In this document: positions 6,800-7,066 of the stretch, in pieces | How positions within the stretch are numbered: the first letter of the stretch is position 1 | Layout: each line of letters begins with the position of its first letter | Source of the DNA: Escherichia coli | GTDB taxonomy: Bacteria > Pseudomonadota > Gammaproteobacteria > Enterobacterales > Enterobacteriaceae | DNA length: 64,000 nt | Direction: 5' to 3' (one strand) | NCBI RefSeq assembly: GCF_050320075.1 | Contig: NZ_CP190018.1 | The notes under the pieces: model-generated | Told to the model about the DNA's origin: nothing | The model's database searches: none | The model's input: only the letters and a program-made list of their open reading frames with translations | Program-made: the position numbers and the translations under genes

Positions 6800-6960
6800 G
6801 CCCGCCTCGCGGCAGGATCGTTTACACTTAGCGAGTTCTGGAAAGTCCTGTGGATAAATCGGGAAAATCTGTGAGAAACAGAAGATCTCTTGCGCAGTTT
6901 AGGCTATGATCCGCGGTCCCGATCGTTTTGCAGGATCTTGATCGGGCATATAACCGCAGA
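6800..6960 (+). promoter_or_regulatory. dnaA promoter region with a DnaA box (tgtggataa at 6849-6857) and a cluster of GATC Dam sites
   Basis: TGTGGATAA is the reverse complement of the TTATCCACA DnaA box; six GATC sites within about 130 bp upstream of dnaA. Confidence 0.7.
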
Positions 6961-7066
6961 CAGCGGTTCGTGCGTCACCCTCATGCAGGGTCTTTTCGAC
7001 GTACGTCAACAATCATGAATGTTTCAGCCTTAGTCATTATCGACTTTTGTTCGAGTGGAGTCCGCC

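Follow-up and report, generated by a model that had tools for sequence, protein, structure and literature searches.

An intact, canonical dnaA control region between the divergent rpmH and dnaA genes of an Escherichia coli strain

The region upstream of dnaA in the DNA analysed here (a stretch of 64,000 nucleotides, referred to throughout as the window) is, judged from its sequence and setting, almost certainly the E. coli dnaA promoter region, comprising dnaAp1 and dnaAp2 between the divergent rpmH and dnaA genes. It is a textbook element that was already known, confirmed here but ordinary. The gene order, in which mnmE, yidC, yidD, rnpA and rpmH on the minus strand are followed by dnaA, dnaN, recF and gyrB on the plus strand, matches the K-12 annotation. 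The rpmH gene occupies positions 6320-6460 (minus strand), with its start codon at 6460, whereas the regulated gene, dnaA, is divergent, with a coding sequence at 7067-8470 (plus strand) and an annotated GTG start at 7067; the 606-bp intergenic region between the two holds the DnaA box and the GATC cluster described below. Alignment with K-12 MG1655, from the base after the rpmH start codon through the dnaA GTG, revealed identity at 606 of 609 positions with no gaps, the three substitutions (A for G at 6661, C for T at 6703 and T for A at 6984) falling outside every box, GATC and named site. An earlier, sequence-only reading had proposed a dnaA promoter region at 6800-7066, naming a lack of correspondence with the mapped K-12 promoters as the result that would speak against it; the alignment had the opposite outcome, with the sites corresponding and every published landmark in place, and the proposed right boundary at 7066 is the base directly before the dnaA GTG. 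The rpmH-dnaA region was found in 5424 of 5426 complete E. coli genomes, the best match being strain CFSAN061763, which is 100% identical over it. The region anchors the window as E. coli DNA with dnaA on the plus strand and oriC outside, and shows the dnaA control region of the strain to be intact and canonical.

Observations on the wider setting concern the left end of the window, where positions 1-1200 comprise accessory DNA encoding a type III secretion effector toxin of the ShET2/EspL2 family. Of the 5426 complete E. coli genomes, only 766 carry this toxin, and K-12 lacks it at that position, indicating that the strain is not K-12-like upstream of mnmE. Colinearity with K-12 holds from dnaA rightward but fails at the left end.

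DnaA box 1 (TTATCCACA, minus strand, 6849-6857) is a perfect match to the consensus, is conserved, and has high affinity according to the literature; its reverse complement, TGTGGATAA, is located exactly where the sequence-only reading had placed a DnaA box. It represents the only perfect TTATCCACA in the 64-kb window. Since 0.41 perfect 9-mers are expected per window by chance, and 33 of 100 shuffles contained at least one, a lone perfect 9-mer is not significant by itself, and box 1 takes its weight from its position and conservation. DnaA box 2 (TTTCTCACA, minus strand, 6870-6878) has one mismatch to TTWTNCACA and lies at a fixed offset from box 1, while the unstranded AGATCT at 6883-6888, an ATP-DnaA-specific site ('box a') according to the literature, overlaps both the p2 -35 element (approximately 6882-6887) and the GATC at 6884-6887. 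These placements agree with published descriptions, in which a consensus DnaA box sits between the two dnaA promoters (PMC5835720; PMC8203912), AGATCT is a DnaA-ATP box (PMC8203912), Box1 and Box2 are two high-affinity sites upstream of P2 that are associated with activation and then repression (PMC466948), and DnaA is detected by ChIP at dnaAp2 (PMC7261185). Box 1, box 2 and AGATCT are identical to those of K-12, from the literature on which DnaA binding and repression are carried over, with indirect support lent by the retention of boxes and spacing throughout the order; by that analogy, autoregulation uses box 2 and the ATP-DnaA-specific sites as well, extending beyond the single consensus box. 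The autoregulated, SeqA-sequestered architecture that had been proposed for the region is borne out in that the motif layout equals that of K-12 at every named site, but the single box on which the proposal relied is too few. Elsewhere, a one-mismatch box, GTATCCACA, is present at 7137-7145 near the 5' end of dnaA.

The hexamers of p1 and p2 are far from consensus, and the placement of both promoters therefore rests on published landmarks, the positional detail of which was taken from reviews, as opposed to sequence alone. Indeed, a simple sigma-70 consensus scan called neither p1 nor p2, and returned only the proximal rpmH promoter, TTGACT-17-TACAAT, on the minus strand (6591..6563). The p2 -10 element, TATGAT(C), spans 6905-6911 on the plus strand (TATGAT at 6905-6910) and is overlapped by the GATC at 6908-6911, in keeping with the reported presence of GATC in both the -10 and -35 elements of dnaA2p (PMC5835720). 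A motif match to the CCGCGG discriminator, or 'Travers box', is located at 6911-6916 (plus strand) directly upstream of the p2 +1, as described in PMC5835720, where this motif is linked to ppGpp sensitivity. From the -10 element and the published landmarks, the p2 +1 can be placed at approximately 6917-6918. Further upstream, the GATC at 6816-6819 and the TACACT at 6823-6828 (together 6816-6828, plus strand), which form part of the conserved TTACACTT, provide a candidate p1 -10 element, from which a p1 +1 near 6835 is inferred. The dnaA leader from p2, calculated from the presumptive +1, is approximately 150 nt in length (6917-7066, plus strand), with a GGAG Shine-Dalgarno sequence at 7057-7060 preceding the GTG start at 7067.

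The leader and its surroundings returned little by way of RNA or repeat structure. The only match in an Rfam scan of 6300-7300 (E <= 1) was to a meaningless viral family at 16.7 bits, the fold of the p2 leader is no better than that of shuffled sequences (z = -0.95), and nothing beyond short repeats centred on GATC and small palindromes emerged from a repeat search. In the leader, at 6952-6968 (plus strand), the palindrome AACCGC-AGACA-GCGGTT could form a small hairpin, the stem of which is invariant in E. coli, Salmonella and an Enterobacter-like lineage despite large indels adjoining it on both sides. The hairpin has no Rfam match, and the invariant stem offers no covariation.

The second component of the region is the cluster of GATC sites. 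The six sites within about 130 bp that had been reported for it start at 6816, 6884, 6908, 6921, 6934 and 6940, i.e. six in 128 bp (6816-6943), a density (six in 130 bp anywhere) that was attained in only 1% of windows simulated under a first-order Markov model. A further trio of sites, at 6718, 6728 and 6739 (6718-6742, unstranded), with spacings of 10 and 11 bp, belongs to the published nine-site cluster. The whole cluster thus comprises nine GATC sites in 226 bp (6718-6943), the densest such span in the 64 kb and one attained in none of 300 simulations, and its count equals the '9 GATC sites within 225 bp' described at the dnaA promoter (PMC5835720). While the right end of the interval first proposed was exact, its left boundary at 6800 cuts the cluster, which begins 82 bp further upstream. 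Spacings within the cluster are 10, 11, 77, 68, 24, 13, 13 and 6 bp, compared with a window mean of one GATC per 224 bp, and GATC is modestly over-represented in the 64 kb as a whole (286 sites versus 244 +/- 13 in dinucleotide-preserving shuffles, none of 100 attaining the observed value). The five sites described as relevant to SeqA at P2, two of which are in the -10/-35 elements and three closely spaced downstream of the start (PMC466948), map to 6884 and 6908, and to 6921, 6934 and 6940, respectively; the latter three (6921-6943, unstranded), downstream of the p2 start, represent the main SeqA target at p2 according to the literature.

A second cluster, as dense as the first, is located inside dnaA at 7720-7981 (plus strand), with nine GATC sites in 262 bp, including six in 130 bp from 7855, and intragenic sites continue to 8395. 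A box matching a relaxed consensus, TTTTCCACA, sits within this cluster at 7815-7823, and the one-mismatch box near the 5' end of the gene lies upstream of it. The intragenic cluster is consistent with the SeqA ChIP-chip signal at dnaA, which is described as 'spread across the entire gene' (PMC2912659).

Conservation of the region across the Enterobacterales was examined by scanning one genome per species with a pattern in the dnaA coding region, and hence outside the promoter, yielding 120 Enterobacterales loci, 98 of which had rpmH found and formed the set for counts of box, order and GATC. A perfect TGTGGATAA in the same orientation was present in 97 of these 98 species, and the order box-GATC-TAnGATC was kept in 91 of them. 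The median number of GATC sites was 10, whereas the remainder of each locus would predict 2.8, with enrichment evident in 97/98 species (Wilcoxon p = 8.5e-18). Distances were compared in a set of 74 species: box 1 lies 56-59 bp from the -10 element (TAnGATC) in 71 of the 74, the CTGTG core of box 2 keeps a constant offset to box 1 in at least 90%, and TACACT precedes box 1 by 25-27 bp in 34, whereas the length of the leader varies from 140 to 328 nt. The constant 56-59 bp spacing set against the variable leader indicates that box 1, box 2 and p2 form a rigid unit. Such rigidity would be predicted were a DnaA oligomer that starts at the boxes required to extend as far as the site bound by RNA polymerase. 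Skovgaard and Hansen reportedly compared the region among three species in 1987, and the order-wide survey extends that comparison; in essence, it is a quantitative restatement of an old result, namely that the spacing between box 1 and p2 and the enrichment in GATC are conserved in the Enterobacterales.

Two lineages that are 79-83% identical to the window over the intergenic region, namely Salmonella enterica (96% to S. enterica arizonae) and a lineage near 'Enterobacter sp. 10-1', were among the orthologous loci returned by exact-protein lookup of L34 and permitted the individual sites to be aligned. Both lineages keep box 1, the GATC in the p2 -35 element, the -10 element, TTACACTT and seven of the nine GATC positions, with the Enterobacter-like lineage showing single substitutions in the -35 hexamer and in the discriminator. 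AGATCT, the GATC at 6921 and the upstream trio are invariant in these alignments. The sites at 6934 and 6940 are lost between genera but replaced, such that each lineage keeps 9-10 GATC sites. In the Salmonella lineage (three loci), a 53-bp leader insertion is located between window positions 6949 and 6950, with two new GATC sites inside it. These appear to compensate for loss of the equivalent of 6940, and the number of GATC sites, as opposed to their positions, would accordingly seem to be what is kept, by turnover.

Extra GATC sites were observed directly upstream of box 1 (6840-6846) in an E. coli variant (GGAAAG to GGATCA) and in the Enterobacter-like lineage, and a GATC occurs 13 nt into or past the box in 23 of the 74 species. 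Comparison of the loci points to recurrent gain of GATC sites flanking box 1. A different pattern was observed in insect symbionts and reduced genomes. Box 1 is kept in Pantoea sp. Nvir (a stinkbug symbiont; locus L037) and in loci L094, L036 and L031/L050, and in this same set together with Serratia symbiotica (L099), which has no perfect box, the GATC cluster is mostly lost, with 2-6 sites left. Symbionts in which the cluster has decayed could provide a natural experiment on dependence on Dam and SeqA.

The upstream part of the cluster may be devoted to something other than dnaA. An annotated small ORF, ysdD (b4757 in K-12; 26 aa; Pfam PF23700), is located at 6690-6770 on the minus strand and contains the GATC trio; in this strain it encodes R for H at residue 23, owing to the SNP at 6703. 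Directly downstream of the trio, on the minus strand, is a promoter-like sequence directed toward rpmH, TTGCGC-16-TATAAT (6689-6716; -35 at 6716..6711, -10 at 6694..6689), which from its sequence is probably the distal rpmH promoter. It is conceivable, at rather worse than even chances, that function is split, with only the six downstream sites (6816-6943) acting on dnaA and the trio belonging to the rpmH-ward promoter and/or to ysdD. In 59 of 107 species the trio is present, 128-142 nt ahead of box 1, and an ATTATA/TATAAT hexamer is present in all 59 of these trio-carrying species, exactly 29 nt from the trio in 57, a co-occurrence with a perfect TATAAT that favours the split, as do the location of the trio inside the annotated ORF and its distance of 77 bp from the next GATC, which is beyond the close spacing cited for SeqA binding. 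Against this, all nine sites are counted as the dnaA promoter-region cluster in PMC5835720, and the portion of the proposal that involves ysdD is at odds with how poorly the frame is kept: the ATG is ATA in Salmonella, and an in-frame ATG precedes 'DPxxSL', a C-terminal motif, in only 16 of the 53 species that keep that translation.

Since the ysdD reading frame is not conserved, coding constraint cannot explain the trio, and the conservation of ysdD looks to be at the level of DNA rather than protein. Indeed, the conserved YsdD 'peptide' is what the GATC sites and the -35 TTGCGC spell ('...DPGRSLRF...'). This suggests that the trio serves dnaA no more than it serves the distal rpmH-ward promoter. 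A combined scheme, in which the trio is primarily the upstream flank of the conserved divergent rpmH-ward promoter, passage of the fork and SeqA co-silence distal rpmH/rnpA together with dnaA, and the conservation of YsdD is largely the shadow of a cis-element, is put forward tentatively and would be judged somewhat doubtful at present. If true, distal rpmH/rnpA transcription would be silenced together with that of dnaA upon passage of the fork. This represents a mildly new angle only, in coupling the trio to a divergent promoter and casting doubt on ysdD as a conserved coding gene.

A replication origin was considered also. In many bacteria oriC adjoins dnaA, and the region shares an 11-nt match with one of the R boxes of oriC. 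It combines, in addition, ingredients of oriC, i.e. a box of the R type together with GATC sites at roughly ten times their average density, and has been estimated to titrate 3-4 DnaA molecules (PMC5835720). A reading of it as an origin, active or vestigial, or as chiefly a site for titrating DnaA, instead of a promoter control region, is nevertheless very improbable, since its single perfect box is accompanied by just one or two weak ones, no stretch is markedly AT-rich (GC falls no lower than 0.32 over any 60 bp), and there is no homology to oriC beyond the box, with the conserved spacing leading to a -35/-10 pair as opposed to an unwinding element. No match to the DUE 13-mers was found within 6 kb of the region, and, as a DUE with 13-mers beside an array of DnaA boxes is not present, identity with oriC was rejected. 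In the classical literature, the cloned dnaA region is reported to fail to drive autonomous replication. A reading of the region as an evolutionary relic is compatible with promoter function, as opposed to being its rival.

The location of oriC itself is relevant here. In K-12 it is approximately 42 kb from dnaA, which would be beyond the low-coordinate end of the window. Because colinearity with K-12 is broken at the left end, the absence of oriC from the window rests on BLAST and not on coordinate arithmetic alone: blastn of K-12 oriC against the window returned only chance matches of 11-15 nt, in agreement with the earlier statement that oriC is not included.

Finally, the notion that the 9-mer and the GATC run co-occur upstream of dnaA by chance, with no regulatory meaning, can be discounted almost entirely, for while a perfect TTATCCACA per 64 kb is unremarkable and GATC is somewhat enriched window-wide, nine sites in 226 bp were attained in none of the simulations, box 1 and GATC enrichment are each retained in 97/98 species with the spacing to the -10 element fixed to +/- 2 bp, and every motif is identical to that of the experimentally characterised K-12 region. 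Chance was excluded, accordingly, by the enrichment of GATC and by conservation.

With the dnaA promoter region as the preferred interpretation, a scheme for its control can be adopted from the literature on the K-12 region, in which three controls on synthesis of the initiator, namely autoregulation, Dam/SeqA, and stringent or growth-rate control, would be combined. The present analysis contributes K-12 identity, motif placement, enrichment and order-wide conservation, whereas the literature supplies DnaA binding, repression, sequestration and the effects of methylation. According to that literature, boxes 1 and 2, which have high affinity and lie a short distance upstream of p2, would be occupied by DnaA in either its ATP- or ADP-bound form, and at low levels of DnaA-ATP this occupancy would stimulate p2. 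As DnaA-ATP rises, an oligomer is predicted to grow from the boxes over the ATP-DnaA-specific sites, including AGATCT in the -35 element, occluding RNA polymerase such that both p1 and p2 would be repressed. Full Dam methylation of the GATC sites in the -35 and -10 elements would favour p2, the activity of which is reported to increase about two-fold (PMC5835720). The fork would pass dnaA about a minute after initiation, because dnaA is approximately 42 kb from oriC in K-12, leaving the cluster hemimethylated; SeqA would then bind the hemimethylated cluster and delay its remethylation, with transcription of dnaA from both promoters being off for part of the cell cycle. Prolonged SeqA-dependent hemimethylation after passage of the fork is described in PMC5835720, citing Campbell & Kleckner 1990 and Lu et al. 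1994, with sequestration of dnaA lasting about 1/5 of the doubling time. The GC-rich CCGCGG, for its part, would render p2 sensitive to ppGpp and subject it to both stringent and growth-rate control. Since mutation of the three downstream GATC sites is reported not to abolish the synchrony of initiation (PMC466948), the physiological weight of sequestration at the dnaA promoter would appear to be modest or limited, or at least debated.

The understanding of replication control is unchanged by these findings, and the region is perhaps best viewed alongside the systems that it resembles. The closest is dnaAp1/p2 of K-12 itself (Hansen et al. 1982; Speck et al. 1999; Campbell & Kleckner 1990), which is the same locus, with all named sites identical, as are the GGAG Shine-Dalgarno sequence, the GTG start and the nine GATC sites in 226 bp; the difference amounts to three SNPs outside the named sites, in a strain that is not K-12. 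The mioC promoter, a DnaA-box-repressed promoter beside oriC, is directly compared with dnaA by Hansen & Atlung (PMC5835720). In that comparison, five boxes have been verified at mioC, which can be fully repressed and escapes sequestration, whereas dnaA, with two strong boxes and ATP-DnaA sites, can be repressed only in part and undergoes sequestration. The sequestration module of oriC is alike in combining a high density of GATC sites with a consensus DnaA box, and a SeqA-dependent delay in remethylation is reported for both loci (PMC5835720). Conversely, the dnaA region is without the DUE 13-mers, the array of R, I and tau boxes, or sequence homology to oriC. The reported period of sequestration is shorter at dnaA (about 1/5 as opposed to 1/3 of the doubling time; PMC5835720), and the output is transcriptional silencing at dnaA as opposed to a block to origin firing at oriC.
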